This document shows positions 22,190 to 54,380 of a stretch of DNA of 64,000 nt, in pieces. The notes under the pieces were generated by a model. It did no database searches, was not told where the DNA came from, and was given only the letters and a program-made list of their open reading frames with translations. The first letter of the stretch is position 1. The number at the start of each line of letters is the position of its first letter. Made by a program: the position numbers and the translations under genes. Origin of the DNA: Chlamydiota bacterium (GTDB lineage: Bacteria > Auribacterota > Tritonobacteria > UBA1439); NCBI GenBank assembly GCA_012729785.1, contig JAAYCL010000042.1, positions 29,743-93,742 of the forward strand, given 5' to 3'.

Positions 22190-22870
22190 ATGGACACGCT
22201 GAAGACGAAGGCGGTGGGGCGGATCGAGGAGGCGATGCGGGGCGTCGAGGATGGGTCGCTGCGGCACCGGATCTTGAAGAGCGCCAAGGAGTTCAAGGTT
22301 TCATGGGTGGAGCTCGGCAGGGCGCTCTACACGGCATGGAAAGACAAGCTGTTCAAGTCGTGGGGCTACACGACCTTCGACGCCTACACCGCCGGGGAGA
22401 TCGGCATACGGAAGGCGACGGCGCTGAAGCTCCTCAAGTCGTACTACTTCCTCGAGAAGGAGCGCTCGCCGTACCTCGACGAGGAGTACCTGGACTCCTC
22501 CGAGGCGGTCAGGGTGCCGCCGGTCGAGTCGATCGACCTCCTGCGGCGCGCGAAGGAGGGGAAGAAGATCGACGAGGAGGATTATGCGGCGCTGCGCTCG
22601 TCGGTCTTCGAGAAGGGGAACGACCCCGGCGACGTCAAGCGCGAGCTCACGCGGATGATCACGCAACGGCGGGAGCTCGATCCCGACGAGGCGTTCGCGA
22701 CGCGGCAGCGGGCGGCGCTGAAGCGGCTTCTCGGGACGCTCCGGTCGCTCGCTCGGGAGGCGGAGGTCTCCACGCTCCTCTCCGCGGCGCTGCTCCGGGA
22801 GATCGCGGGGCTTGTGCAGAGACTCGAGGCGGAACTCGGCGGCGCGGCGGGACGGGGGGAGGAGCGATGA
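22190..22870 (+). CDS. Conserved hypothetical helical protein (possible DUF3102-like/HTH N-terminus)
   Basis: FKVSWVELGRAL..WGYTTFDAYTAGEIGIRKATALKL; strong coding bias; overlaps the next gene by ATGA. Confidence 0.65.
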   Translation: MDTLKTKAVGRIEEAMRGVEDGSLRHRILKSAKEFKVSWVELGRALYTAWKDKLFKSWGYTTFDAYTAGEIGIRKATALKLLKSYYFLEKERSPYLDEEYLDSSEAVRVPPVESIDLLRRAKEGKKIDEEDYAALRSSVFEKGNDPGDVKRELTRMITQRRELDPDEAFATRQRAALKRLLGTLRSLAREAEVSTLLSAALLREIAGLVQRLEAELGGAAGRGEER

Positions 22871-23214
22871 AGGACCGGACCGCGACCGTCGCGGCGCTCA
22901 AAGGGGCGGTGGCGCGCTTCATCCGCGCGCGGGAGTGGGAGCAGTTCCACTCGCCCAAGAATCTCAGCATGGCGGTGAGCATCGAGGCGGCCGAACTGAT
23001 GGAGCTCTTCCAGTGGATGGAGGTGGAGGAGGCGCGGCGGAAGGCCGCCTCCCCGCGGCTGCGGAAGAGGATCGAGGAGGAGATCGCGGATATCGCCATC
23101 TACACCCTGAGTCTCTGCCACGCGCTGGGCCTCGATCTCTCCTCGTGCATCGAGAAGAAGATCGTCAGGAACGAGAAGAAATACCCCGTCGAGAAGTGCA
23201 GGGGCAGGTACTGA
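22867..23214 (+). CDS. MazG-like nucleotide pyrophosphohydrolase (dCTPase-like)
   Basis: REWEQFHSPKNLSMAVSIEAAELMELFQW...EEIADIAIY...KKYP. Confidence 0.9.
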   Translation: MKDRTATVAALKGAVARFIRAREWEQFHSPKNLSMAVSIEAAELMELFQWMEVEEARRKAASPRLRKRIEEEIADIAIYTLSLCHALGLDLSSCIEKKIVRNEKKYPVEKCRGRY

Positions 23215-23387
23215 GACGCGTCGGGCCTGTCGGGCACGGCCCTTTTCCATACGCCTCTTTCCCGCGGTATACAGGCGCACACCATTCTTCTTCCCACCGG
23301 CCGCACCGTCGAATTCCGCTCCCAAACGACATATCGACATACCGGGAGAACGACATACCGGAATTGGAAAAATACTGATTTTTCTCG

Positions 23388-23416
23388 TTGACATAGTGGG
23401 GGGACTACTCTATATT
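23388..23416 (+). promoter_or_regulatory. sigma70 promoter of the dcw operon
   Basis: TTGACA(23388)-17 nt-TATATT(23411). Confidence 0.85.
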
Positions 23417-23450
23417 TTGGCGCAGAGTGGTGAGAAGTGGAGTAAAGTGG
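23395..23450 (+). promoter_or_regulatory. MraZ-binding direct repeats
   Basis: AGTGG at 23426, 23436 and 23446 (exact 10-bp period) plus one at 23395, matching the known GTGG repeat architecture upstream of mraZ. Confidence 0.8.
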
Positions 23451-23483
23451 TGTAAGCGCTTCTAAGCCCGAGGTGTCAAGACA

Positions 23484-23942
23484 ATGTTCTACGGCCAGTT
23501 CAGACATTCGATTGACAGCAAGGGACGCCTGATCATCCCCGCCAAATTCAGGGACGCGCTCCGCGAGAATTACATCGAGAAGTTCTGGGTGACCCGCGGC
23601 ATCGAGCGCTGCGTCTACGTCTACACCCCGCGCGAGTGGAACCTCCTGATGGCGAAGTTCAAGGAGCTCTCCCTCACCGCCGGGAAGGCGAGGGACTTCC
23701 TCCGGGGCATGGTCTCCAACGCCTCCGAGGTCGAATGCGACAAGCAGGGGCGGATCATGCTCCCGCAGAACCTCCTCGCGCTCGCCGGGATCACCCGGGA
23801 CGTGGTGGTGGCGGGGATGCTGAGCAGGTTCGAGATATGGGACGAGGCGAGCTGGAAGAGGTACGAGGAGGAGCGAGGGGAGAACTTCGAGGAGATCGCC
23901 GAACAGCTCAACGCGCAGCTCGATGCGGCGCGGGGGCTGTGA
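23484..23942 (+). CDS. mraZ: Division/cell wall cluster transcriptional repressor MraZ
   Basis: MFYGQFRHSIDSKGRLIIP and DKQGRIMLP repeats. Confidence 0.95.
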   Translation: MFYGQFRHSIDSKGRLIIPAKFRDALRENYIEKFWVTRGIERCVYVYTPREWNLLMAKFKELSLTAGKARDFLRGMVSNASEVECDKQGRIMLPQNLLALAGITRDVVVAGMLSRFEIWDEASWKRYEEERGENFEEIAEQLNAQLDAARGL

Positions 23943-24031
23943 GGGGACCGGGCGGGGGGACGCGCACGACGATGCATGCGGCGACGGGATCGACGGTGTT
24001 CGGGAAGCTGGAATTCGGGAGGGGGGTTCTG

Positions 24032-24247
24032 ATGAGACCTGCTCGAACGAGAAGGCCGCTTGCCGAGAAGATCCTCTTCTGGTGCCCCAGACTCGCCTCG
24101 GCGCTCACCGCGGCATGCGCGAAGGATGCGCGGCGGGGGGGGGGCGACGCGGGGACGCTGGCGTCGATGATGGCCGTGAGCGGGAGCATCGACCGCGCGG
24201 GGCGGGCGAGGAACTACTACCGGTTCTACATCCGCCCGATGGCCTGA
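24032..24247 (+). CDS. Small hypothetical protein (71 aa; alternative start 23972) coupled to rsmH
   Basis: GGGAGG RBS; TGA overlaps the rsmH ATG (TGATG); mostly G/C third positions. Confidence 0.5.
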   Translation: MRPARTRRPLAEKILFWCPRLASALTAACAKDARRGGGDAGTLASMMAVSGSIDRAGRARNYYRFYIRPMA

Positions 24248-25173
24248 TGGATGCGCCCCACCTTCCGGTGATGCGGGAGGAGGCGCTGCGGTTGCTCGGC
24301 CTCCGGCCGGGGATGCGCGTGGTCGACGCGACGGTGGGGTGCGGGGGGCACGCGGAGGAGATCGCGAGGCGGATCGGGCCCGGCGGGGTGTTGGTGGGGC
24401 TCGATTGGGACGGGGAGGCGCTCGAGATCGCGCGGAGGCGGCTCGAGAAGGCGGGCCCGGCGGTGCGGTTGCACCGGCGAAGTTTCGCGGAGCTCGCGGC
24501 GGTGCTCGCGGAAGAGGGGATCGGGGAAGCGGACGCACTGCTCTTTGACCTCGGGGTTTCGAGCTTGCAGCTCGACACGGCGGCGCGAGGATTCGGGTTT
24601 CGCGCCCGGGGACCCCTGGATATGCGGATGGACCGGCGCCGCGGCGTCACCGCGGAGGCGCTCCTCAGGGAGAAGGATCCGCGGGAACTGGAGCGGATCT
24701 TCAGGGAGTACGGCGAGGAGACGCTGGCGCGGCCGATCGTTCGGGAGTTCCTCAGGGCGGGCGCGCCGCGCGACACGGAGGCGCTCGCCGGGATCGCGTC
24801 GCGGGTCTACCGGCGCTTCGGGAGGAAGGGCGCGATCCATCCGGCGACGCGGATCTTTCAGGCGCTCCGGATCGCGGTGAACGACGAGCTCGGCGCCCTC
24901 GCCGCGGCCCTGCCGCAGGCGGCGGCGGCGGCCGCGAAGGGGGCGCGGATCGTGGTGATCAGCTTTCACTCGCTCGAGGACCGGATCGTGAAGAGGGCGT
25001 TCGCGGAGGGGGCGCGCGGGTGCATCTGCCCGCCGGGATTGCCGGTCTGCGGGTGCGGCGCCGCGGCGGCGCTGCGGCTGATCACGCGCAAGCCGCTGCG
25101 GCCGACAGCCGAGGAGACGGCGGCGAACCCGCGGGCGCGGAGCGCGCGGTTGCGGGCGGCGGAGAAGCTGTAA
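24247..25173 (+). CDS. rsmH: 16S rRNA m4C1402 methyltransferase
   Basis: HLPVMREE, DATVGCGGH, DLGVSSLQLD, HPATRIFQALRIAVNDEL, ISFHSLEDRIVK, NPRARSARLR. Confidence 0.95.
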   Translation: MDAPHLPVMREEALRLLGLRPGMRVVDATVGCGGHAEEIARRIGPGGVLVGLDWDGEALEIARRRLEKAGPAVRLHRRSFAELAAVLAEEGIGEADALLFDLGVSSLQLDTAARGFGFRARGPLDMRMDRRRGVTAEALLREKDPRELERIFREYGEETLARPIVREFLRAGAPRDTEALAGIASRVYRRFGRKGAIHPATRIFQALRIAVNDELGALAAALPQAAAAAAKGARIVVISFHSLEDRIVKRAFAEGARGCICPPGLPVCGCGAAAALRLITRKPLRPTAEETAANPRARSARLRAAEKL

Positions 25174-25182
25174 ACGGCGTTG

Positions 25183-25329
25183 AACGCGCACACGGGGGCA
25201 GGCCGGGATGGACGGAAGATCTTTATCCGCATCCATTGAAGAGACCAGGAGCTGCGCGGTGCAGCTCGTCAATGATGCACCTCCAACCCTAAAGGTCCCT
25301 GCCGTCGCCGGTCCTGCTCCCGGCGCGTT
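25183..25329 (+). ncRNA. Candidate rod-shaped structured RNA with central bubble (6S-like or novel)
   Basis: About 52 nested base pairs traced by hand over 147 nt; three G-U pairs favour the + strand. Confidence 0.45.
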
Positions 25330-25366
25330 TTCGGATTCCGCGGCTCGAGGCGGGGAGGGCGGAGCG

Positions 25367-25711
25367 ATGCAGCGGGTCCTGATCGTCGACGACGAGCCGG
25401 TCGTGAGGAGGCTCATCGGGATATACCTGCGCGGGCGCTTCATCGTGGAGGAGGCCGAGGACGGCGAGAAGGCGCTTCGCAAGGCCGCCGGCGGCGGGTA
25501 CGACTACGTGATCACCGATGTGCAGATGCCGCGGATGGACGGTCTGCACCTGCTCGGGGAGCTCAAGCGGATCTGTCCGCGCACCTCGGTCATCGTGATG
25601 TCGGCGCTCGGCGAGCTCTACGCCGAGTCGGCGATGGAGCGCGGCGCGCAGACGGTCATCTCGAAACCGTTCGTGCGGGACACGATCCAAACCGCCCTGC
25701 AGTGCGCCTGA
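25367..25711 (+). CDS. Single-domain (CheY-like) response regulator
   Basis: VLIVDDE, ITDVQMP (phospho-Asp), VMSA and SKPF motifs; no output domain. Confidence 0.9.
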   Translation: MQRVLIVDDEPVVRRLIGIYLRGRFIVEEAEDGEKALRKAAGGGYDYVITDVQMPRMDGLHLLGELKRICPRTSVIVMSALGELYAESAMERGAQTVISKPFVRDTIQTALQCA

Positions 25712-25743
25712 ACGCGGCGCGCGGCGGCGGAGGAGGAGCGGGG

Positions 25744-26166
25744 ATGAGGAAGAGGAACCGGAGGCTCAACGAGGGGTTCTCGACCGCCGCGCTCACCGGC
25801 AGATGGATGCTCGTCGCCGTCATCGCGGTCTCGTTGTCGCTCCTCTACGTCTGGCAGCATGTGCAACTGGTGCGCACCGGGTACGCCATCAAGAGGATGG
25901 AGCGGGACCTCGAGAAGTGGCAGAAGGCCAACGAGGCGCTCCACCTCGCCAACGAGCGGCTGAAGAACCCGCAGCGCGTCGAACAGGCGCTCATGCACAA
26001 CAAGCTCGGCCTGGTCTTTCCGCAGGCCAAGGATATCGTCCGGCTTCGCTACCCCCGCCATTCAAAGGCATACGGGAGGGATATATCGGGGAGCGAAGGG
26101 GGCACCGACACTCTTCTGAGCTATATGAGTGGCGGGGGCAGCGCGGCCGGACGGCACAACAGCTAG
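25744..26166 (+). CDS. ftsL: Cell division protein FtsL-like
   Basis: Basic N-terminus, one TM helix, coiled coil ending LKNPQRVEQ..LGL; position just before the PBP gene. Confidence 0.75.
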   Translation: MRKRNRRLNEGFSTAALTGRWMLVAVIAVSLSLLYVWQHVQLVRTGYAIKRMERDLEKWQKANEALHLANERLKNPQRVEQALMHNKLGLVFPQAKDIVRLRYPRHSKAYGRDISGSEGGTDTLLSYMSGGGSAAGRHNS

Positions 26167-26257
26167 TGGCGGTCGCCCCGCCTCCAGGGGCGGGGGTGCG
26201 AGGCGCACCCGTTGTGGGGCGGGGGCGCGTCGGCGGACGCGAAAAGGCGAGTGTGCG

Positions 26258-27988
26258 GTGAGCGGGAACCGGTATCGGCTGAAGTCGTACTCTGTCTACG
26301 CGGTGTTCCTCCTCTGCTTCGCCGGCCTCTACGCCCGCCTCTACGTCCTCCAGATCGTCAACCACCGGGATCTGTCCACGCGCGGCGAGCAGCTCCACCG
26401 CTTCAACGTCAAGATCCAGCCGCGCCGCGGCACCATCCTGGATCGGGAGGGCCGCCCCCTCGCCATGAGCGTCAGCGTGAAGTCCGCCTACGCCGTCCCC
26501 GAGGTCATCGAGTCGCCCGCCGAGACGGCCGCGCTCATCGGGGGCGCGCTCGAGATCCCCCCGGCCGAGATCCTCGAGAAGCTCAACAGAAAATCCAGGA
26601 AGTTCGTCTGGCTCGCCCGGAAGCTCGACGGGAGGGCGGCGGAGCGGCTCGAGGCGCTCGGGCTCGAGGGGGTCGGCTTCCGCGAGGAGGTGCGGCGGGT
26701 CTACCCCCAGGGCGCCCTGCTGAGCCACGTCCTCGGCTTCGTGGATATCGACAACCGCGGGCTCGAGGGGCTCGAGCGCCACGCCGACGCGACCCTGCGC
26801 GGGCAGGCGGGCTGGATGGCCTCCTACCGCGACCGCAAGGGGCGGGAGATCATGACCCTCCGGCGGCGCGACGTGCAGCCGATCGACGGGGCCGACCTCA
26901 CCCTCACGCTGGACGTGGTCATCCAGCACATCGTCGAGAGCGAGCTCGAGAACGGCTGCCGCACCTTCAACGCCCAGGCGGGGTGCATCATCGTGATGAA
27001 CCCGCAGACCGGGGCGGTGCTCGCGATGAGCAGCTGGCCGACCTACGATCCGAACCGCCCCGCGGAGTACCCCCCCGAGGCGCGCCGCAACCGGTGCATC
27101 ACCGACGTCTTCGAGCCGGGTTCGACCTTCAAGGTCATCACGGTGGCCACCGCCCTGGACCGGGGCGTTGTGGCGATCGACGACAAGTTCTTCTGCGAGA
27201 ACGGCGCCTTCAGGGTCGGGAGGCACACCCTCCACGATGTGCACGCCTACGGGACGCTCACGACCGCGGAGATCGTGAAAAAGTCGAGCAACATCGGGGC
27301 CGTGAAGATCGCGATGGTGCTGGGGGAGGAGCAGCTGTACGAGGGGATACGGCAGTTCGGCTTCGGGTCGCCCACGGGGATCGGCCTCCCGGGCGAGGTG
27401 GCGGGGATACTGCATCCGCTGTCGACATGGTCCGGCCTCTCCATCGCGGCGGTCCCGATGGGGCAGGAGATCGGCGTGACGCCGCTCCAGCTCGCCTCGG
27501 CGGTCGCCGCGATCGCCAACGGCGGCCTGGCGATGAAGCCGTACCTCGTCGACTCTGTCCGGGACTCGTCGGGGCGCGTCGTGAAGACGTTCGCCCCGGA
27601 GGTGCGCGGGCGGGTGGTGCGCGAGGCCGCGGCGAAGCTGCTGTCGGAGGCGATGGAGGGGGTGCCGACCCGGGAGGGGACCGCGCCGAAGGCGGCGCTG
27701 GCGGAGTACACGGTCGCGGGGAAGACCGGGACCTCGCAGAAGGTCGAGCCCACCGGGCGCTACTCGCACTCGCGCTTCATCGGGTCGTTCATCGGGTTCG
27801 CCCCTTCGCGGAACCCGGAGGTGCTCGTGCTCGTCGTGCTGGACGAGCCGAGACCGGTCTACTACGGCGGGTCGGTGGCGGGCCCGATCTTCAAGGAGGT
27901 CGCGGGGAGGGTGCTCAAGTATCTCGGGGTGCCGCCGGACAAGGAGACGGACGGGAAGATCGAGGTGGCGATGGGGAGGCCGCGCTGA
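26258..27988 (+). CDS. ftsI: Class B penicillin-binding protein (FtsI/PBP3)
   Basis: RGTILDR, EPGSTFK (SxxK), KSSNIG (SxN) and AGKTGT (KTG) motifs. Confidence 0.92.
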   Translation: MSGNRYRLKSYSVYAVFLLCFAGLYARLYVLQIVNHRDLSTRGEQLHRFNVKIQPRRGTILDREGRPLAMSVSVKSAYAVPEVIESPAETAALIGGALEIPPAEILEKLNRKSRKFVWLARKLDGRAAERLEALGLEGVGFREEVRRVYPQGALLSHVLGFVDIDNRGLEGLERHADATLRGQAGWMASYRDRKGREIMTLRRRDVQPIDGADLTLTLDVVIQHIVESELENGCRTFNAQAGCIIVMNPQTGAVLAMSSWPTYDPNRPAEYPPEARRNRCITDVFEPGSTFKVITVATALDRGVVAIDDKFFCENGAFRVGRHTLHDVHAYGTLTTAEIVKKSSNIGAVKIAMVLGEEQLYEGIRQFGFGSPTGIGLPGEVAGILHPLSTWSGLSIAAVPMGQEIGVTPLQLASAVAAIANGGLAMKPYLVDSVRDSSGRVVKTFAPEVRGRVVREAAAKLLSEAMEGVPTREGTAPKAALAEYTVAGKTGTSQKVEPTGRYSHSRFIGSFIGFAPSRNPEVLVLVVLDEPRPVYYGGSVAGPIFKEVAGRVLKYLGVPPDKETDGKIEVAMGRPR

Positions 27989-33466: not shown

Positions 33467-33505
33467 ACCCCGCCTGCTGAAACGACGGAGGGAAAGGAGG
33501 ACCGG

Positions 33506-34354
33506 ATGAGCAGGAGAACCCTGGTGGCGGTGGTGGCCGCGGCGCACCTGTGCGTGCTCGTCGTGCTGGCGCTGAGCGGCGGCTGCGCCTTCGACAGGAA
33601 GGAGCCGAAGCTGATGGCGGCGGGGCCCGTGCAGGAGATCCGCGCGCCGGAGGGTGAGCCGGAGTCCATCCTCGAACCGAAGGGGATGGCGGAGGAGTTG
33701 GACCTGCTGGTGTCGCGCGAACCGGAGCTGATCCCGGCCGTGCGGGAAGAGGCCGTGGAGCCGGAAGCGGCCGCGGCGGCGACCGCCGCCCCCCCGACCC
33801 CGCTGCCGTTCGTCGAGGCGCCGCCCGCGGCGGAGAAGGCGGAAGCGCCCGGTAAAGAAACGATCGCCGAGGCGCCCGCCGGGACGACGCACAAGGTCGC
33901 GCCCGGCGAGAGCCTCTGGAAGATCGCGCGCAGGTACGGGCTCACCGTCGCCGAGCTCGCCTCGCACAACAACCTCCCCCCCGACGCGCGGCTGAAGGCC
34001 GGCCGGCTGCTCTCCGTGCCGGCGCCGTCGGCGGGCGCGGCGGCGCCCGCGGCCGCCGCGGCGCCCGCGGCCGCCGCGGTGACCGAGACCGCCCGGCCGG
34101 CCGTCGTCGCGGAGCCCGCGAGGGGGCCGGTCATCCGGCGGCCCGCCCCACGCCCCGCGGCGCGGGCCGTCGCCCCGGCGGCGCCGCGCCCCGGCGCGGC
34201 GGCGGTCACGCGGCATCTGGTGAAGAAGGGGGAGACCCTCTCGTCGATCGCCAGGATGCACGGCGTGCCGTTGCAGCGGATCGTCGCCGCCAATGAGATC
34301 AAGGACGCGGGGAGGATACGCGCGGGGCAGGTTTTGACGATACCGCTCCGGTAG
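33506..34354 (+). CDS. Lipoprotein with two LysM domains
   Basis: Lipobox LSGGC; HKVAPGESLWKIARRYG and HLVKKGETLSSIARMHG; Ala/Pro linker. Confidence 0.9.
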   Translation: MSRRTLVAVVAAAHLCVLVVLALSGGCAFDRKEPKLMAAGPVQEIRAPEGEPESILEPKGMAEELDLLVSREPELIPAVREEAVEPEAAAAATAAPPTPLPFVEAPPAAEKAEAPGKETIAEAPAGTTHKVAPGESLWKIARRYGLTVAELASHNNLPPDARLKAGRLLSVPAPSAGAAAPAAAAAPAAAAVTETARPAVVAEPARGPVIRRPAPRPAARAVAPAAPRPGAAAVTRHLVKKGETLSSIARMHGVPLQRIVAANEIKDAGRIRAGQVLTIPLR

Positions 34355-41042: not shown

Positions 41043-41079
41043 TCCGCGGTTGAACGGGGGGGGCGGGATAGGGTATAGT
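41043..41079 (+). promoter_or_regulatory. sigma70-like promoter carrying a TCCGCGGTTGAACG element
   Basis: TTGAAC(41050)-18-TATAGT(41074). Confidence 0.55.
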
Positions 41080-41105
41080 CTGTGCCGCACGGGGGGAGGC
41101 GGACG

Positions 41106-41786
41106 ATGCGGCTGCTCCAGTTCCTTCTGCGGGTCGCCAAGTTCATCGCGGGCCTCCTGCTCATCCCCGCCTGCGCCGGGGCCACGGTGGCCCTCTACCG
41201 AGACCTCCTGGGGCCGATCAGTTCCCAGGTCTGGTTTCTCGCCGGCTTCGGCGTCTTCGTCCTGATCTTCGCCATCTTTCAACAGCCGATAAAGTCGTAC
41301 GTCTTCGGGCACGAGCTCACCCACGCCTTCTGGATACTCCTCTTCCGCGGCGAGGTGACCGCCTTTTCCGCCTCCTCGAAAGGGGGGAGGGTGGAGGGGA
41401 CGAAAGGGAACTTCCTCATCGCGCTCTCCCCGTACTTCTTCCCCGTCTACACCATCCTCCTCATCGCCCTCTACTTCGCGGGGAAGCTGTTCTGGGAGCC
41501 GCAGCGGTTCACCGAGGGGTTCGTCTTCCTGATCGGCTTCACCTGGGCGTTCCACATCATCCTGACCATCTCGGTTCTGATCAAGGGGCAGACGGAGGTC
41601 AAGAAGAACGGCTACCTGTTCTCGATCGCCGTCATCTACCTGATGAACATCCTGGTGCTCGGGCTCGTGCTCACCTTCATCTGCGATACGTTCGACCTGG
41701 CGGACCTCGCCTCCGCGATGCGCGGGAGCGTCTCCGAGGCGTACGCCCGTTTCGCGCGCGCGGCGGGGACCCTCTCCGCGCGCTGA
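41106..41786 (+). CDS. Membrane protein with HExxH motif, peptidase M50B-like
   Basis: FGHELTHA within TM segments; GG.V and ALSPYFFP motifs. Confidence 0.65.
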   Translation: MRLLQFLLRVAKFIAGLLLIPACAGATVALYRDLLGPISSQVWFLAGFGVFVLIFAIFQQPIKSYVFGHELTHAFWILLFRGEVTAFSASSKGGRVEGTKGNFLIALSPYFFPVYTILLIALYFAGKLFWEPQRFTEGFVFLIGFTWAFHIILTISVLIKGQTEVKKNGYLFSIAVIYLMNILVLGLVLTFICDTFDLADLASAMRGSVSEAYARFARAAGTLSAR

Positions 41787-41874
41787 CGGGGAGGCGGAGA
41801 GGGGAGGGGGCCGACGGGCCCCGGCTCCCGGGGGAAAGGCCCCGGGGGACGCGGCGGAGCCGCCGCGCGGGGAT

Positions 41875-41910
41875 TCCGCGGTTGAACGCGGCGGCCGGTG
41901 GCGCTATACT
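41875..41910 (+). promoter_or_regulatory. sigma70-like promoter carrying the same TCCGCGGTTGAACG element
   Basis: TTGAAC(41882)-17-TATACT(41905). Confidence 0.6.
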
Positions 41911-41952
41911 GTCGCCGTCGCACCGGTCTGGATCATCGGGAGGAGGTTCACA

Positions 41953-42528
41953 ATGAGCTATGCGGGACGTGTCGCCGCGCTCGCCGCGGCCGCGGCGTGC
42001 GCCGCGGGGTGCGCGGCGGTGCTGCACCCGTACAAGTCCGCGTCCACCGGCTTTCATATCGCCTCGGTGAAACGCGAGGACAAGCTGCTCGCCATCGACG
42101 GACAGTCGCGTCTCGTGGAGGCCCGCGGCATCAAGTCCGAGGGGAGCAGCGGTTCCGGGAAGTTCACCGGCCTCGGGGGGCTCGACAAGTGGCGCTACGA
42201 GGCGCGGTTCCTCCCCCCCGAGAAGCAGGGCGAGGAGTACGTCGTCACCTTCGTGGCCCGGGGGCCCGACGCGGCCCTGCCGAGGCCGCTGACCGTCGTC
42301 TTCGAGTATATGTACACGAAGGAGGTCGAGGTCCACTCCTCCCGGAGGGTGTACGAGAACCTCCCCGTGGGGCGGCACAAGTATGTCTGGAAGAACCTCG
42401 GCGCGCAGAACCTGGAGAAGGGGGATATCGCCAGCTGGCGCGTCACGCTCCAGTACGACGGCGTCGAGGTCGCCGAGAAGCGCTCGGCGCTCTGGCGGCC
42501 GTGGGGCAAGGTCGTTCTTGACGAGTAG
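41953..42528 (+). CDS. Hypothetical lipoprotein
   Basis: Ala-rich leader ending AAGC; RBS GGAGGAGG. Confidence 0.65.
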   Translation: MSYAGRVAALAAAAACAAGCAAVLHPYKSASTGFHIASVKREDKLLAIDGQSRLVEARGIKSEGSSGSGKFTGLGGLDKWRYEARFLPPEKQGEEYVVTFVARGPDAALPRPLTVVFEYMYTKEVEVHSSRRVYENLPVGRHKYVWKNLGAQNLEKGDIASWRVTLQYDGVEVAEKRSALWRPWGKVVLDE

Positions 42529-44174: not shown

Positions 44175-44192
44175 TGCTGCAAGGAGTGATTC

Positions 44193-44972
44193 ATGAAGAA
44201 GCGTGGCGTAAAGAAGCCCGTGCCGTTCGGGGCGGAGCGCCGGGTGGAGTTGCGGGCGGATGTCGACGTGCCGCTCAAGATCAAAAAGGATAGGAACGTC
44301 ATCGAGGCCCACACAAGGAACCTGAGCGCCTCCGGGGCATTCTGCACGCTCGACAGGTTCGTCCCTCTCAACTCGACCCTCGACGTGACGCTCCTGGTCC
44401 CCGAGGCGCCCCGAAAGGGGCGCCCGGCGCAGAAGAAGGTCCGATGCCACGGCATCGTGGTCCGGAACACGCCCGAGGGCGCGGACGCCGCGCACCCGCA
44501 CTACGGCATCGCGCTCTGCTTCACGGACCTGTCAACGGCGGACCGGGAGCGCCTCGACACCCTGGTGCACGAGAAGCTGCACGTCCCGCCGTCGAAGGGA
44601 ACCCCCGCGCCGGCTTCGCGCGAGGGGGCGGGAAAGATCTTCTCGTCGAGATGCTTCGGGAGGAAAGGATTCAGTGTGCGCTCGGCGAACTTCAAGGTCA
44701 TGGGCGACGGGATCAGCTTGAGCAAGAACGGCATCTGTTTCCAGGCCGACCGCAGCATACCGCTCTTCAGGGAGATCGCCGTCAACCTGGTGCTCCCCCC
44801 CCGGGCCAAGGAGCGCCGCGAAAAGGCCCACGAGGCGCTCCAGTGCAGCGCGGTGGTGGTGGGGTGCGAGCAGGCCGCCGACTCCGAGAGGTACGATATG
44901 GCCGCCTATTTCGTCGGTCTCACGAAAGAACAGAAGGAACGGCTCGACCGCTGCATCAAGGAGATCCTCTGA
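44193..44972 (+). CDS. Tandem PilZ-domain protein
   Basis: Domain 1 has RRVELR and NLSASG; domain 2 has SLSKNG; each ends with YGIAL/YDMAAYF-type strands. Confidence 0.75.
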   Translation: MKKRGVKKPVPFGAERRVELRADVDVPLKIKKDRNVIEAHTRNLSASGAFCTLDRFVPLNSTLDVTLLVPEAPRKGRPAQKKVRCHGIVVRNTPEGADAAHPHYGIALCFTDLSTADRERLDTLVHEKLHVPPSKGTPAPASREGAGKIFSSRCFGRKGFSVRSANFKVMGDGISLSKNGICFQADRSIPLFREIAVNLVLPPRAKERREKAHEALQCSAVVVGCEQAADSERYDMAAYFVGLTKEQKERLDRCIKEIL

Positions 44973-45023
44973 TCTTCCCGGGCCGCGTCCCGCCCGCCGC
45001 GGCCGCCCTGGTGAAAGGAGCCG

Positions 45024-46121
45024 ATGGCCGAACTGCCGTGGATACTCGGGGAAGCGGTGAGGCGCGGGGCCTCCGACATCCATCTGAAGGTGGGGTGTCC
45101 GCCGATATTCAGGATCGCGACGAAGCTCGTGACCCTTGACCACCCCCCGCTCTCGCCCGCCGATACCGAGGCGATCGCCCAGTCCGTCGTCACCGGCGCG
45201 CAGTGGGCCTCGTTCCAGAAGGGCGCCGAGCTGGACGTCGCCCATATCGACCCCGCATCCGGCAGGTTCCGCACGAACATCTTTCTCCAGCGGGGCATGG
45301 TCGGCGTTGTGATGCGGCACGTGCGGACGCGGATACCCGACTTCAAGGAGCTCGGGCTTCCGCCGATCGTCGAGAAGATCGCCCTCTTCGACCGCGGCAT
45401 CGTCATCGTCAGCGGCGCAACCGGCTCCGGGAAGTCCACCACGCTCGCCGCGATGGTCGATTTCGTCAACGCCAGGGTCCGCCGCCACATCGTGACGATC
45501 GAGGACCCGATCGAGTTCATACACGAGGACGTGAAGTCGGTGATCGACCAGCGCGAGGTCGGCATCGACACGCGCTCCTTCCCCTCGGCCCTCCGTTTCG
45601 TGATGCGGCAGGACCCGGACATCATCCTGATCGGGGAGATGCGCGACAAGGAGAGTTTCATGGCGATGCTCACCGCCGCCGACGTGGGGCGGCTCTCGCT
45701 CGCCACCCTGCACACCTCCAACGCCGCCCAGGTGGTGCTCCGGGTGATGGACTTCTTCCCCGCGGCGGAGCGCGAGCAGGCCCGGCTCCAGCTCGCGGCG
45801 AACCTCGGCGCGGTCATCTGCCAGCGTCTCCTCCCGCGCGCCGACGGCGCCGGTTCCGTCCCCGCCGTGGAGGTGATGCTCGGGACCGCCACCGTGCGCA
45901 AGCTCATCCGGGAGAACAAGGTCGAGAAGCTCTCCGCCGCGATCCAGGAGGGACGGGACCAGGGGATGCAGACGTTCAACCAGTCCCTCGTGGACCTCGT
46001 GCAGTCGGGCGTCATCACGGACGAGACCGCCTTCGCCTACTCGCCGAACCCCGAGAGTCTCAAGATGAACCTCCAGGGGATCTACCTCGACGAGTCCCGC
46101 CAGATCCTCGGCGACGATTGA
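45024..46121 (+). CDS. Type IV pilus retraction ATPase, PilT/PilU family
   Basis: GASDIHL, GATGSGKST, TIEDPIE, RQDPDIILIGEMRD, TLHT, GMQTFNQSL. Confidence 0.92.
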   Translation: MAELPWILGEAVRRGASDIHLKVGCPPIFRIATKLVTLDHPPLSPADTEAIAQSVVTGAQWASFQKGAELDVAHIDPASGRFRTNIFLQRGMVGVVMRHVRTRIPDFKELGLPPIVEKIALFDRGIVIVSGATGSGKSTTLAAMVDFVNARVRRHIVTIEDPIEFIHEDVKSVIDQREVGIDTRSFPSALRFVMRQDPDIILIGEMRDKESFMAMLTAADVGRLSLATLHTSNAAQVVLRVMDFFPAAEREQARLQLAANLGAVICQRLLPRADGAGSVPAVEVMLGTATVRKLIRENKVEKLSAAIQEGRDQGMQTFNQSLVDLVQSGVITDETAFAYSPNPESLKMNLQGIYLDESRQILGDD

Positions 46122-51596: not shown

Positions 51597-54380
51597 ATGG
51601 ACACGCACGACTACAAGGGCACGCTGAACCTTCCCAGAACCTCCTTCCCGATGAAGGCGTCCCTGAGCCTGCGGGAGCCGGAGCTGCTCGCATTCTGGGA
51701 GCGGGAGCGGGTCTACGAGAAGGCGCTGGCCAACCGGAAGGGCGGCCGGCCTTTCATCCTCCACGACGGCCCCCCCTACGCCAACGGCGACATCCATATG
51801 GGGCACGCCCTCAACAAGCTCCTCAAGGACATGGTCGTGAAGTACAAGACGATGCGCGGGTTTTACAGCCCCTTCGTCCCCGGCTGGGACTGCCACGGCC
51901 TTCCCGTCGAGCACCAATTGATGAAGGAGCTCAAGGTGCGCAAGCACCAGATCGACCGGGCGCGGTTCAGGGAGAAGGCGCGCGACTACGCGCTCCGGTT
52001 CGTCGACGTCCAGCGGGAGCAGTTCAAGCGGCTCGGCATCTTCGGCGACTGGGAGCGGCCGTACCTCACGCTCGACCCCGCCTACCAGGCCGCCATCATC
52101 GGCTGCTTCGGCAGGATGTACCTCGACGGATACGTCTACCGCGGGATGAAGCCGATCCACTGGTGCCCGGCCTGCGAGACCGCCCTCGCCGAGGCGGAGG
52201 TCGAGTACGACGACCACACCTCGCCGTCGGTCTACGTGGCGTTCGAGGCCGTCTCCGGCATCGAGAAGGCGCTCCCCGGGGCGCGCGGCGCCTCCCTGCT
52301 CATCTGGACCACGACGCCCTGGACGCTCCCCGCAAACCGCGCCGTCGCCGTGCGGCCCGAGTTCGAGTACGCCGCGGTCAGGATGAAGGGGCGCCTTCTC
52401 GTCGTGGCCCGGGAGCTCGCGGGCAGGGTGGCCGACGAGCTGGGCGAGCCGGCGCCGGAGGTTATGGGCGTCTGCCGCGGCCGCGATCTCGAGGGGGCGG
52501 TCGCCGCCCATCCGCTCACGGGGGACGGTTCGCCCGTGGTCCTCTCCAACCACGTGACGCTCGAACAGGGCACCGGCCTCGTCCATATCGCCCCGGGGCA
52601 CGGCGACGAGGATTACCAGATCGGCCTGAAATACGGCCTCGAGATCTTCGCGCCGGTGGACGGGCGCGGGGCGTTCACCAAGGCGGCGGGGCGGTTCGCC
52701 GGGATGCGGGTCGAGGAGGCCAACAGACCGATCGTCGACGAGCTGCGCGGCAGCGGTGCGCTCCTCCTCTCGCGCGAGATCGCGCACTCGTACCCGCACT
52801 GCTGGCGATGCAGGCGGCCGGTGATCTTCAGGGCCACCGAGCAGTGGTTCATCGGCGTCGACCGGCGCGACCTGCGCAGGCGCGCACTCGAGGAGGCGGA
52901 AAAAACCGCCTGGATCCCCGAGCGGGGGCGCGGCAGGATCGCCAGCATGCTGGAGTCGCGGCCCGACTGGTGCCTCTCGCGCCAGCGCCACTGGGGGGTG
53001 CCGATCCCCGTGCTCTACTGCGCCGGCTGCGGCGAGCCGGTTCTGACCGCCCAGACCCTGGCGCGCGTGCGGGAGGCAGTCGCCGCGCGGGGCGCCGACG
53101 CGTGGTTTTCCGAGCCGGCCGTCTCGTTCGTCCCGGAGCGGTTCGGCTGCCCCTCCTGCGGGAAGGGGGAGTTTCGCAAGGAGGAGGATATCATCGACGT
53201 CTGGTTCGACTCCGGCGTCAGCCACCAGGCGGTTTTGGCCGCGCGGCCCGAGCTCGGGTTCCCTGCCGCGCTCTACCTCGAGGGGAGCGACCAGCACCGC
53301 GGATGGTTCCAGACCTCGCTCCTCACGGCGGTCGCCCTCGCGGGCCGCGCCCCGTTCGCGACGGTCCTGACGCACGGCTTCATCACCGACGGCGAGGGGA
53401 AGAAGATGTCCAAATCCGCGGGGAACGTGATCGCCCCCCGGAGCGTCATCGAGCGGTACGGGGCGGACATACTCCGCCTCTGGGTCGCCTCCGTGGACTA
53501 CGGCGTCGATGTCCGGATCTCGCGGGAGATCCTCGACCAGCTCGTCGACGCGTACCGGAGGCTTCGGAACACGTTCCGGTACCTGCTCGGCAACCTGTGC
53601 GATTTCTCTCCTGAACGGCACCGCGTCCCCCTCGAACGGATGGAGGAGACGGACCGCTGGATCCTGAGCCGGCTCGAGCGCCTCCGCTCCGGCGTGACCG
53701 ACGCGTACGAACGGTACGACTTCTGCCGGGCGTACCATCTGCTGCACCAGTTCTGCGCCGTGGATCTGAGCAGCCTCTACCTCGATGTCTTGAAGGACCG
53801 GCTCTACACCGCCGGGGGGGACTCGCCGCGGCGCCGCTCCGCGCAGACCGCCCTCTGCGCCGTCCTCGAGACCCTCGTCCCGCTCTCCGCCCCGATCCTC
53901 GCCTTCACCGCGGAGGAGGCGTGGCGCGCCGCGCCGTTCCTGACGGCGCGGGCGGCGAGCGTGCACTGGGCGGACTGGCCCGCGGCGCGGGAGGAGCATC
54001 TCGACGCGGCGCTCGAGGCGGAGTGGGAACGGCTGCTCGAGGTGCGGCGCGAGGCGGCGAAGGCGCTCGAGGAGGCGCGGCGGGGCGGGATGATCGGCAA
54101 TGCGCTCGAGGCGCGGGTGGCGATCGTGTGCGGAGACGAGGGGCTGTTCAGGCTCCTGGACGCCAAGCGGCCCCTCCTCGCCGATCTGTTCATCGTCTCC
54201 GGCGTGGCGCTTTCGTTCGATCCGTCGGCGGGCGCCGCGGCGAAGGTGACGGTGGCGCGCGCGGAGGGGGGGAAGTGCGGGCGCTGCTGGAGATACGCCA
54301 CGAACGTCGGGCGCAGCGCGGCGCACCCGTCGCTCTGCGGGCGGTGCGTCGAGGTGCTTCAATCGTACGGCCGCGCCTGA
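51597..54380 (+). CDS. ileS: Isoleucine-tRNA ligase
   Basis: TLNLPRTSFPM, HDGPPYANGDIHMGH, PGWDCHGLP, IWTTTPWTLP, KMSKS, C-terminal CGRCW..CGRC. Confidence 0.97.
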   Translation: MDTHDYKGTLNLPRTSFPMKASLSLREPELLAFWERERVYEKALANRKGGRPFILHDGPPYANGDIHMGHALNKLLKDMVVKYKTMRGFYSPFVPGWDCHGLPVEHQLMKELKVRKHQIDRARFREKARDYALRFVDVQREQFKRLGIFGDWERPYLTLDPAYQAAIIGCFGRMYLDGYVYRGMKPIHWCPACETALAEAEVEYDDHTSPSVYVAFEAVSGIEKALPGARGASLLIWTTTPWTLPANRAVAVRPEFEYAAVRMKGRLLVVARELAGRVADELGEPAPEVMGVCRGRDLEGAVAAHPLTGDGSPVVLSNHVTLEQGTGLVHIAPGHGDEDYQIGLKYGLEIFAPVDGRGAFTKAAGRFAGMRVEEANRPIVDELRGSGALLLSREIAHSYPHCWRCRRPVIFRATEQWFIGVDRRDLRRRALEEAEKTAWIPERGRGRIASMLESRPDWCLSRQRHWGVPIPVLYCAGCGEPVLTAQTLARVREAVAARGADAWFSEPAVSFVPERFGCPSCGKGEFRKEEDIIDVWFDSGVSHQAVLAARPELGFPAALYLEGSDQHRGWFQTSLLTAVALAGRAPFATVLTHGFITDGEGKKMSKSAGNVIAPRSVIERYGADILRLWVASVDYGVDVRISREILDQLVDAYRRLRNTFRYLLGNLCDFSPERHRVPLERMEETDRWILSRLERLRSGVTDAYERYDFCRAYHLLHQFCAVDLSSLYLDVLKDRLYTAGGDSPRRRSAQTALCAVLETLVPLSAPILAFTAEEAWRAAPFLTARAASVHWADWPAAREEHLDAALEAEWERLLEVRREAAKALEEARRGGMIGNALEARVAIVCGDEGLFRLLDAKRPLLADLFIVSGVALSFDPSAGAAAKVTVARAEGGKCGRCWRYATNVGRSAAHPSLCGRCVEVLQSYGRA

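Follow-up and report, generated by a model that had tools for sequence, protein, structure and literature searches.

In one subclade of the Auribacterota, the junction between rsmH and ftsL in the division and cell wall (dcw) gene cluster holds a gene for an orphan single-domain response regulator (RR), which is directly preceded by a rod-shaped structured RNA. The gene was analysed in a 64,000-nucleotide stretch of contig JAAYCL010000042.1 (GenBank assembly GCA_012729785.1), referred to here as the window, where it lies at 25367-25711 on the plus strand and encodes a protein of 114 amino acids with a receiver domain (PF00072). The order rsmH-ftsL-ftsI is among the most fixed of bacterial gene orders. 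On comparative sequence grounds, the RR is a derived, mostly retained and dispensable addition to this junction. Its position, and nothing besides its position, suggests a role in division; a signalling input is proposed rather than proven, and the probability that the RR modulates division or septal wall synthesis is put at about 0.5.

The receiver protein and its family

The match of the protein to PF00072 (Response_reg) takes in profile positions 1-110 of 111, with an E-value of 5.5e-26 and a score of 91.3 bits (cutoff 30.2). The open reading frame (ORF) ends after helix alpha-5 and has no output domain, as in the stand-alone class of response regulators. In an alignment of the RR family comprising 24 sequences, D8, D9, D51, K100 and P101 are invariant (24/24), and S79 is nearly so, being Ser in 23 sequences and Thr in one. 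An earlier note, made from the letters of the window, had described a CheY-like receiver with all of its catalytic residues, and D8/D9, D51, S79 and K100 are indeed present. AlphaFold2 predicts a canonical (beta-alpha)5 receiver (mean pLDDT 93.7), with strands that include residues 3-7, 47-51, 74-79 and 96-99, and the catalytic residues map to strand ends. Foldseek comparison of the model gave TM-scores of 0.89-0.94 to CheY, the receiver (REC) domain of DrrB and RR468, and a profile search of the PDB returned CheY, Spo0F, RR468 and TrrA among its matches (E-values of 1e-20 to 1e-24, 32-37% identity). Judged by sequence and predicted fold, the RR belongs to the REC superfamily and, within it, to the stand-alone class, and it is predicted to be phosphorylatable at D51.

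A Shine-Dalgarno sequence, GGGGAGGG, can be read at 25352-25359 on the plus strand, with GGAGG 8 nt before the ATG at 25367, and an equivalent sequence was also found ahead of the RR gene in relatives. In some assemblies a 167-residue ORF is called from an ATG at 25208, which would include the peptide QLVNDAPPTLK. This call was rejected as an over-extension through the conserved RNA element described below, because the conserved stretch lacks synonymous-site variation and contains compensatory changes in stems, and the extra segment is thus not coding.

The homology search delimited a discrete family of proteins of 114-122 residues that are 55-86% identical, followed by a gap to receivers of the NtrC/AtoC type at 45% identity or less. 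In a profile search of 1.84 billion representatives, multi-receiver proteins dominate, and only two single-receiver representatives of the RR family are present at 50% clustering. The identical RR protein occurs in 331 indexed blocks of the assembly collection, so that following it up in meta-omic data is realistic. Named samples containing it include sludge, bioreactor and anaerobic-digester metagenomes, and the organism is abundant in anaerobic digesters. The metagenome-assembled genomes (MAGs) that carry the gene are labelled Candidatus Aureabacteria (equivalent to Auribacterota, of the Planctomycetes-Verrucomicrobia-Chlamydiae (PVC) group) or, loosely, 'Chlamydiota bacterium' or 'bacterium'.

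Genomic contexts were gathered by exact-protein look-ups, a scan of GTDB species representatives, a metagenome scan and local tblastn. The order mraZ, small ORF, rsmH, rod, RR, FtsL-like gene, ftsI, murE, murF and mraY recurs in at least 10 distinct lineages, all from a single Auribacterota subclade, so the insertion is not unique to one genome. Among all contexts inspected, no second genomic context was seen for members of the family. FtsI from ten RR-bearing lineages is 64-80% identical to FtsI of the window, and the spacing between the RR gene and ftsL is 10-45 nt in most lineages and 177 nt in one (L014). At the 74 loci from outside the Auribacterota that the GTDB scan returned (Paenibacillus, Pontibacter and others, with receivers at most 46% identical), no dcw gene lies within 5 kb of the receiver gene.

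The ratio of nonsynonymous to synonymous substitution rates, calculated for the same genome pairs, is 0.08-0.57 for the RR, 0.13-0.50 for RsmH and 0.10-0.45 for FtsL, and these values indicate that the RR is kept under purifying selection. The FtsI homologues fall into tiers, and every RR-bearing genome is at least 59% identical to the window in this protein. The outgroups are L164 (52% identical in FtsI), L165 (Candidatus Ancaeobacter aquaticus, of another Auribacterota class; 48%) and L166 (another Auribacterota MAG; 47%). None of the three carries the RR gene, and in all three rsmH and ftsL overlap or stand 12 nt apart; since rsmH abuts ftsL in these outgroups, the insertion is a derived, retained trait.

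The nearest relatives outside the RR family are the receivers of sigma-54 activators of the NtrC/AtoC type (43-45% identity), some of the matches carrying PF00158, whereas the RR ends after helix alpha-5 and has neither an AAA+ nor a DNA-binding domain. The best matches in sequence and structure, CheY, Spo0F, TrrA (TM1360) and RR468, are likewise stand-alone receivers. Orthology with CheY was rejected (NF007901 equivalog, 56.3 bits against a cutoff of 189): no chemotaxis or flagellar (che, fli) genes occur within the window, and the counterpart of Y106 of CheY is Val in the clade of the window and mostly Phe outside it. An RssB orthologue was also rejected (58.6 bits against a cutoff of 329).

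The likeness to DivK and CpdR that had been pointed out from the sequence holds as an analogy. Like the RR, these are receiver-only proteins of about 115-125 residues in which the phospho-acceptor pocket is intact, and for the RR, too, a part in the cell cycle or in division is proposed. Orthology did not survive comparison with the equivalog models. CpdR was rejected (NF046022, 44.4 bits against a cutoff of 180), as was DivK, since the 25 NCBIfam matches listed, out of 92, include no DivK model and are headed by AtoC and NtrC receivers. DivK and CpdR belong to the Alphaproteobacteria (Caulobacter) and are not dcw-encoded, whereas the RR comes from a candidate phylum of the PVC group. DivK and CpdR act on the CckA-CtrA circuit and ClpXP, and neither is known to act on FtsL or FtsI.

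The rod RNA and the transcript

The structured RNA occupies 25190-25331 on the plus strand, directly upstream of the RR gene, is about 135 nt long and has conserved, covarying stems. The rod RNA to which the earlier note had alluded is therefore real, conserved and structured. According to RNAalifold and a covariance model, it consists of a 7-bp apical stem, a 10-bp stem, a 5-bp CUUUA/UAAAG stem and a long basal stem, with an unpaired 3' loop of 11 nt, ACCUCCAACCC. The apical hairpin (25249-25267, plus strand) reads GAGCUGC-N5-GCAGCUC, and GAGUUGC...GCAACUC in five relatives; it is common to all relatives and is followed by an invariant UCAAUGAUGCACCUCCAACCCUA(A/G)AG. An unpaired segment, CACCUCCAACCCUA (25278-25291, plus strand), is invariant across relatives, and the invariant loop of the rod is CACCUCCAACCC. 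The core is flanked by long G-rich and C-rich arms, the sequence of which varies by lineage while their complementarity is kept.

The rod was found in 13/13 distinct lineages of the subclade, in one of them as a degenerate copy, and the 12 well-conserved copies score 87-147 bits against the covariance model. In the alignment fitted to the model, 93.9% of cells pair, compared with 41-51% in slid controls. Seven pairs are changed on both sides, and the covariation score, from an alignment fitted to the structure, was reached by 0 of 500 shuffles. Each of the 13 copies, folded alone, gives a long hairpin although the arm sequences differ. A gathering-threshold scan of the whole window with Rfam 15 returned only two tRNAs and no match for the rod, and in an E-value scan of 25100-25450 the best hit had an E-value of 0.84, all hits being far below the gathering scores. 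The 6S RNA, the signal recognition particle RNA and the mraW motif were each rejected as identities for the rod, as none gave an Rfam match. In a metagenome-wide search with the 17-nt core, hairpin-bearing copies occurred only at rsmH-RR junctions, and the other matches lacked the hairpin and were due to chance. Taken together, the rod is a well-supported candidate for, and likely represents, a new RNA family.

Two relatives without an RR gene separate the two elements. In L162 the rod (93.6 bits) stands immediately before ftsL, and in L161 a degenerate copy (17.6 bits) stands at the same place; the rod is therefore tied to the junction and not to the RR. The outgroups L164, L165 and L166 have no rod. 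Because the outgroups lack both elements and rod-bearing relatives without the RR exist, both elements are innovations of a single subclade, in which the RR is an accessory feature. Structured RNA in a dcw transcript is known from Rhodobacter sphaeroides, in which UpsM, or the extended dcw 5' leader, lies upstream of mraZ (PMC5089854). Like UpsM and the mraW motif of Rfam, the rod is a structured RNA that is lineage-specific and forms part of the dcw transcript; UpsM, however, is located upstream of mraZ and the mraW motif upstream of mraW, whereas the rod is 3' of rsmH and 5' of the RR gene or ftsL. Speculative roles for the rod are that RNase III processes its long stem, that a protein binds its invariant loop, or that it mimics the 3' tail of 16S rRNA. 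A further idea is that the loop sequesters the Shine-Dalgarno region of the next gene in cis. Predicted duplexes between the rod loop and that region have energies no better than those for ftsI, murE and mraZ, and the duplex is poor in one relative (L006), so that the energies speak neither for nor against such sequestration.

Upstream of mraZ, at 23388-23416 on the plus strand, there is a strong sigma-70-like promoter (TTGACA-17-TATATT) that agrees with the consensus at 11/12 positions. A promoter scan of 22800-26400 found this site only and none in the spacers, and a scan of the same region for intrinsic terminators found none. The site is probably the main dcw promoter. Metatranscriptome contigs from three runs start at 23437-23441, and those from one further run at 23398.

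The same four runs, which come from three studies, also contain single contigs that extend from 24395-24529 to 26091-26896 and thus run from the middle of rsmH through the rod, the RR gene and ftsL into ftsI. Contigs from other runs, covering 24882-25865, 25167-26171 and 25359-26400, cross the individual junctions. Such continuity across rsmH-RR-ftsL-ftsI is what co-transcription predicts, and no independent transcription of the RR gene, the possibility raised in the earlier note, was seen, with the qualification that the contigs are assembled and unstranded and may include DNA carry-over. Three further runs labelled as metatranscriptomes (X1-X3) have flat depth and contigs of 80-110 kb; they were treated as DNA-like and excluded from the RNA evidence.

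The contigs that cross the RR gene begin at 24395, 24399, 24412 or 24529 in the four runs (24395-24412 in three), and their mean depth is 17-30, compared with 2-9 for the 5' part of rsmH and 2-7 for the 3' part of ftsI. Within rsmH, the region 24395-24529 may thus harbour a transcript start or a site of processing.

A proposed input into division and its alternatives

The two-component inputs into division known in model bacteria, WalR, MtrA, CenR and GluR, are transcriptional. The RR has no output domain and would therefore have to act by protein-protein contact. The rod, the RR gene and ftsL-ftsI would be expressed as one unit, and the RR would therefore be made together with late divisome proteins, while a histidine kinase or a phosphorelay with genes elsewhere would phosphorylate D51. 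In view of the close linkage, a product of the same operon would be the most economical target; the basic cytoplasmic tail of FtsL, the FtsQLB-FtsWI activation step and a lipid-II enzyme (MraY or MurG) are candidates. Such a module would serve as an accessory phospho-switch, adjusting septal cell-wall synthesis in response to a signal, and would not be a core part of the divisome. Contact of the RR with FtsL, FtsWI or a lipid-II enzyme, if it occurs, would couple environmental sensing directly and post-translationally to septal wall synthesis, in distinction from the transcriptional inputs named above.

A precedent for such contact is EpsW, a single-domain response regulator of Myxococcus xanthus, which in its phosphorylated form activates the phosphoglycosyl transferase EpsZ by direct binding (PMC12802240). 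Both proteins are stand-alone receivers encoded beside envelope-biosynthesis machinery, regulation of that machinery being only proposed for the RR. EpsW has the Dif chemosensory pathway upstream and a shown target, EpsZ, and the comparison with the RR is made at the level of the REC fold only.

Several observations weigh against a role in division. Pfam scans of the approximately 57 ORFs covering the 64-kb window found no HisKA, HATPase_c or Hpt domain, in agreement with the earlier statement that no kinase is encoded there, and neither a phosphatase nor an RR partner was identified within the window. The N-terminal tail of FtsL shows no obvious difference between RR-bearing and RR-lacking lineages. 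The transcript contigs carry the limits given above, and operon position alone is also compatible with simple hitch-hiking.

The RR is also absent or disrupted within the clade in which FtsI is at least 59% identical to that of the window. L162 has rsmH, a 175-bp spacer and ftsL, without the RR, and L161 has no RR in the 286 nt upstream of ftsL. In L019 (5001-5303) the RR frame jumps from '...YDCVIT' to '...GGASSFLAKPF' in another frame; an internal deletion and a frameshift at a G-run have removed D51 and about 40 further residues, which reflects either a pseudogene or an assembly error at the G-run. On account of these three lineages the RR is dispensable for the dcw cluster. Midpoint-rooted neighbour-joining trees, which are not robust, place L162 beside the RR-bearing L009 and suggest that its lack of the RR is a loss. 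The losses point to accessory status and do not tell the functional models apart.

The suggestion in the earlier note of a signalling input into cell division came through in part. The insertion is shared by at least 10 lineages and, in the unstranded contigs, independent transcription was not seen; on the other side, no kinase or target was identified and the RR is dispensable.

It is possible, though considered less probable than a division role, that the RR is a hitch-hiker. It would then serve a phosphorelay that has nothing to do with division, for instance by shuttling phosphate in the manner of Spo0F or by acting as a phosphate sink for a kinase with its gene elsewhere, and would occupy the dcw site only for the steady, growth-coupled expression found there. 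This would fit the lack of a kinase or partner in the window, the generic nature of the closest solved structures and sequences (CheY, Spo0F, RR468 and TrrA), and the fact that where the RR has been lost or was never gained (L162 and L161) or is disrupted (L019) the rest of the cluster shows no visible change. The position of the gene, however, 3' of the rod and close 5' of ftsL, is held across lineages in which FtsI is only 64-80% identical, and a neutral passenger in such a constrained gene order would be expected to move or vanish more often. The finding of no second context for any family member among the contexts inspected also argues against a hitch-hiker.

A more specific form of the division role is a lineage-specific dcw checkpoint, in which the rod would control translation or processing of the RR-ftsL-ftsI message and the phosphorylated RR would directly gate FtsQLB-FtsWI. 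This is regarded as doubtful. A similarly tentative part of it is that the invariant exposed loop of the rod, CACCUCCAACCC, may resemble the 3' tail of 16S rRNA (the anti-Shine-Dalgarno sequence). If the checkpoint exists, it would be the first two-component input encoded inside the dcw cluster, as far as the literature searched goes.

Single-domain response regulators can act as proteolysis adaptors, as CpdR does with ClpXP, and FtsL is intrinsically unstable in model bacteria. The RR might accordingly be a CpdR-like adaptor or anti-adaptor that, phosphorylated or unphosphorylated, delivers a division protein to an AAA+ protease and sets the level of a limiting late divisome component, and co-translation with FtsL would fit stoichiometric control. 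NCBIfam matches of the RR include the RssB receiver domain, but the scores for RssB and CpdR are far below the equivalog cutoffs given above, and no protease gene is linked. The idea is pure inference and is considered unlikely.

Very improbable is the view that the rod is the real novelty and the RR ORF a secondary, decaying or tolerated frame whose translation couples ribosomes from the rod leader into ftsL: it would suit the presence of the rod in 13/13 lineages against an intact RR in 10/13, and of a rod directly before ftsL in L162, but a spacer ORF would not preserve a phospho-acceptor pocket, and the catalytic residues are invariant and the substitution ratios well below 1 and similar to those of the essential neighbours.

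Whichever function applies, one subclade has stably opened the rsmH-ftsL junction to a structured RNA and a phospho-switch protein and has retained both, a natural experiment in the grafting of regulation onto the divisome. In this uncultured phylum of the PVC group, a standard phospho-switch protein stands in an unprecedented conserved position, beside an RNA motif that is apparently new. No precedent for a receiver gene inside a dcw cluster was found in the literature searched, the coverage of which did not extend to the main pan-bacterial dcw survey (doi 10.1038/s41564-022-01257-y), and none was found for work on division genes of the Auribacterota. The one detailed paper on Auribacterota genomics that was searched makes no mention of cell division, FtsZ, dcw, peptidoglycan, two-component systems or response regulators.

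The surrounding dcw cluster

The window has a G+C content of 70.7%, and profile scans identified a complete dcw cluster, from mraZ to ftsZ, on its plus strand. The first gene, mraZ, is at 23484-23942 (PF02381, E 5.1e-39; TIGR00242, 137 bits against a cutoff of 98), and rsmH (mraW), encoding the 16S rRNA m4C1402 methyltransferase, is at 24247-25173 (PF01795, E 6e-95; TIGR00006, 287.9 bits against a cutoff of 154). A spacer of 193 bp separates rsmH from the RR gene. The 32-bp spacer between the RR stop codon and the ftsL ATG (25712-25743, plus strand), read from the sequence, contains no terminator and carries the ftsL Shine-Dalgarno sequence, GGAGGAGGAG, at 25729-25738 on the same strand. The placement of the receiver between rsmH and ftsL, in the same orientation and 32 bp before ftsL, as originally described, is confirmed by these coordinates.

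The gene at 25744-26166 (plus strand) encodes an FtsL-like bitopic protein of 140 residues with one transmembrane segment and a coiled coil. It was named from its position between rsmH and ftsI together with these two features; it matches TIGR02209 and FtsL_Actino weakly, at E 1.6e-4 and with scores below the cutoffs. The homologues are 139-140 residues long, and PF04977 (DivIC) was found in one. At the C-terminus (26090-26140), after the coiled coil, there is a conserved motif, SG(S/T)xGGTDTLLSY, which to our knowledge is not a recognised feature of FtsL.

The class B penicillin-binding protein gene ftsI lies at 26258-27988 on the plus strand (PF03717 and PF00905, E 2.9e-77). Its start is preceded by a strongly conserved motif, AAAAGGCGAGU(G/A)U, in the window (26240-26257) and in L005, L006, L008, L009, L161 and L162, and the start codon is GTG in most relatives and ATG in L008. 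The genes 3' of ftsI in the window are, in order, murE, murF, mraY, murD, a LysM protein gene, ftsW, murG, murB, ftsQ, ftsA and ftsZ. The LysM protein (33467-34351, between murD and ftsW) has two LysM domains, and the gene calls of relatives also show a gene there.

Between mraZ and rsmH, at 23972-24247 on the plus strand, is a small ORF of 91 residues, the stop codon of which overlaps the rsmH ATG. No Pfam family was matched by this ORF. Its counterparts in relatives are called as genes of 83-92 residues that are 41-59% identical, with the motifs PRLASAL, LAxMMxASGSID and FYIRPM kept, and it is called as 71 residues in two assemblies of the window's own sequence. The outgroups L164 and L165 have ORFs of 81 and 99 residues, respectively, at this position, and homology of these to the 91-residue ORF was not detected. 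Within the small ORF, at 24125-24134, a contig of run X4 with a depth of 283 has an extra G after 24134 in a poly-G run; this would shift the frame of the ORF and may be homopolymer variation or a sequencing error.

In L013 (1827-2266) and L014 (2145-2570 and 2915-3092) the spacers flanking the RR gene are expanded to 177-440 bp by AT-rich sequence. The expanded spacers contain short direct repeats, for example GGATTT/GGGATTTT and CCGCGGATTA, and similar repeats occur upstream of the rod in L161.

Further along the window, ARAGORN called a tRNA-Ser(CGA) at 53617-53704 on the minus strand, inside the isoleucyl-tRNA synthetase ORF; it has no Rfam support and is probably a false positive. A few genes 3' of ftsZ, at 44190-46118, a PilZ-domain protein and a PilT/T2SSE-type ATPase are encoded, and two ORFs without a Pfam match lie between ftsZ and these genes, at 41079-42525.

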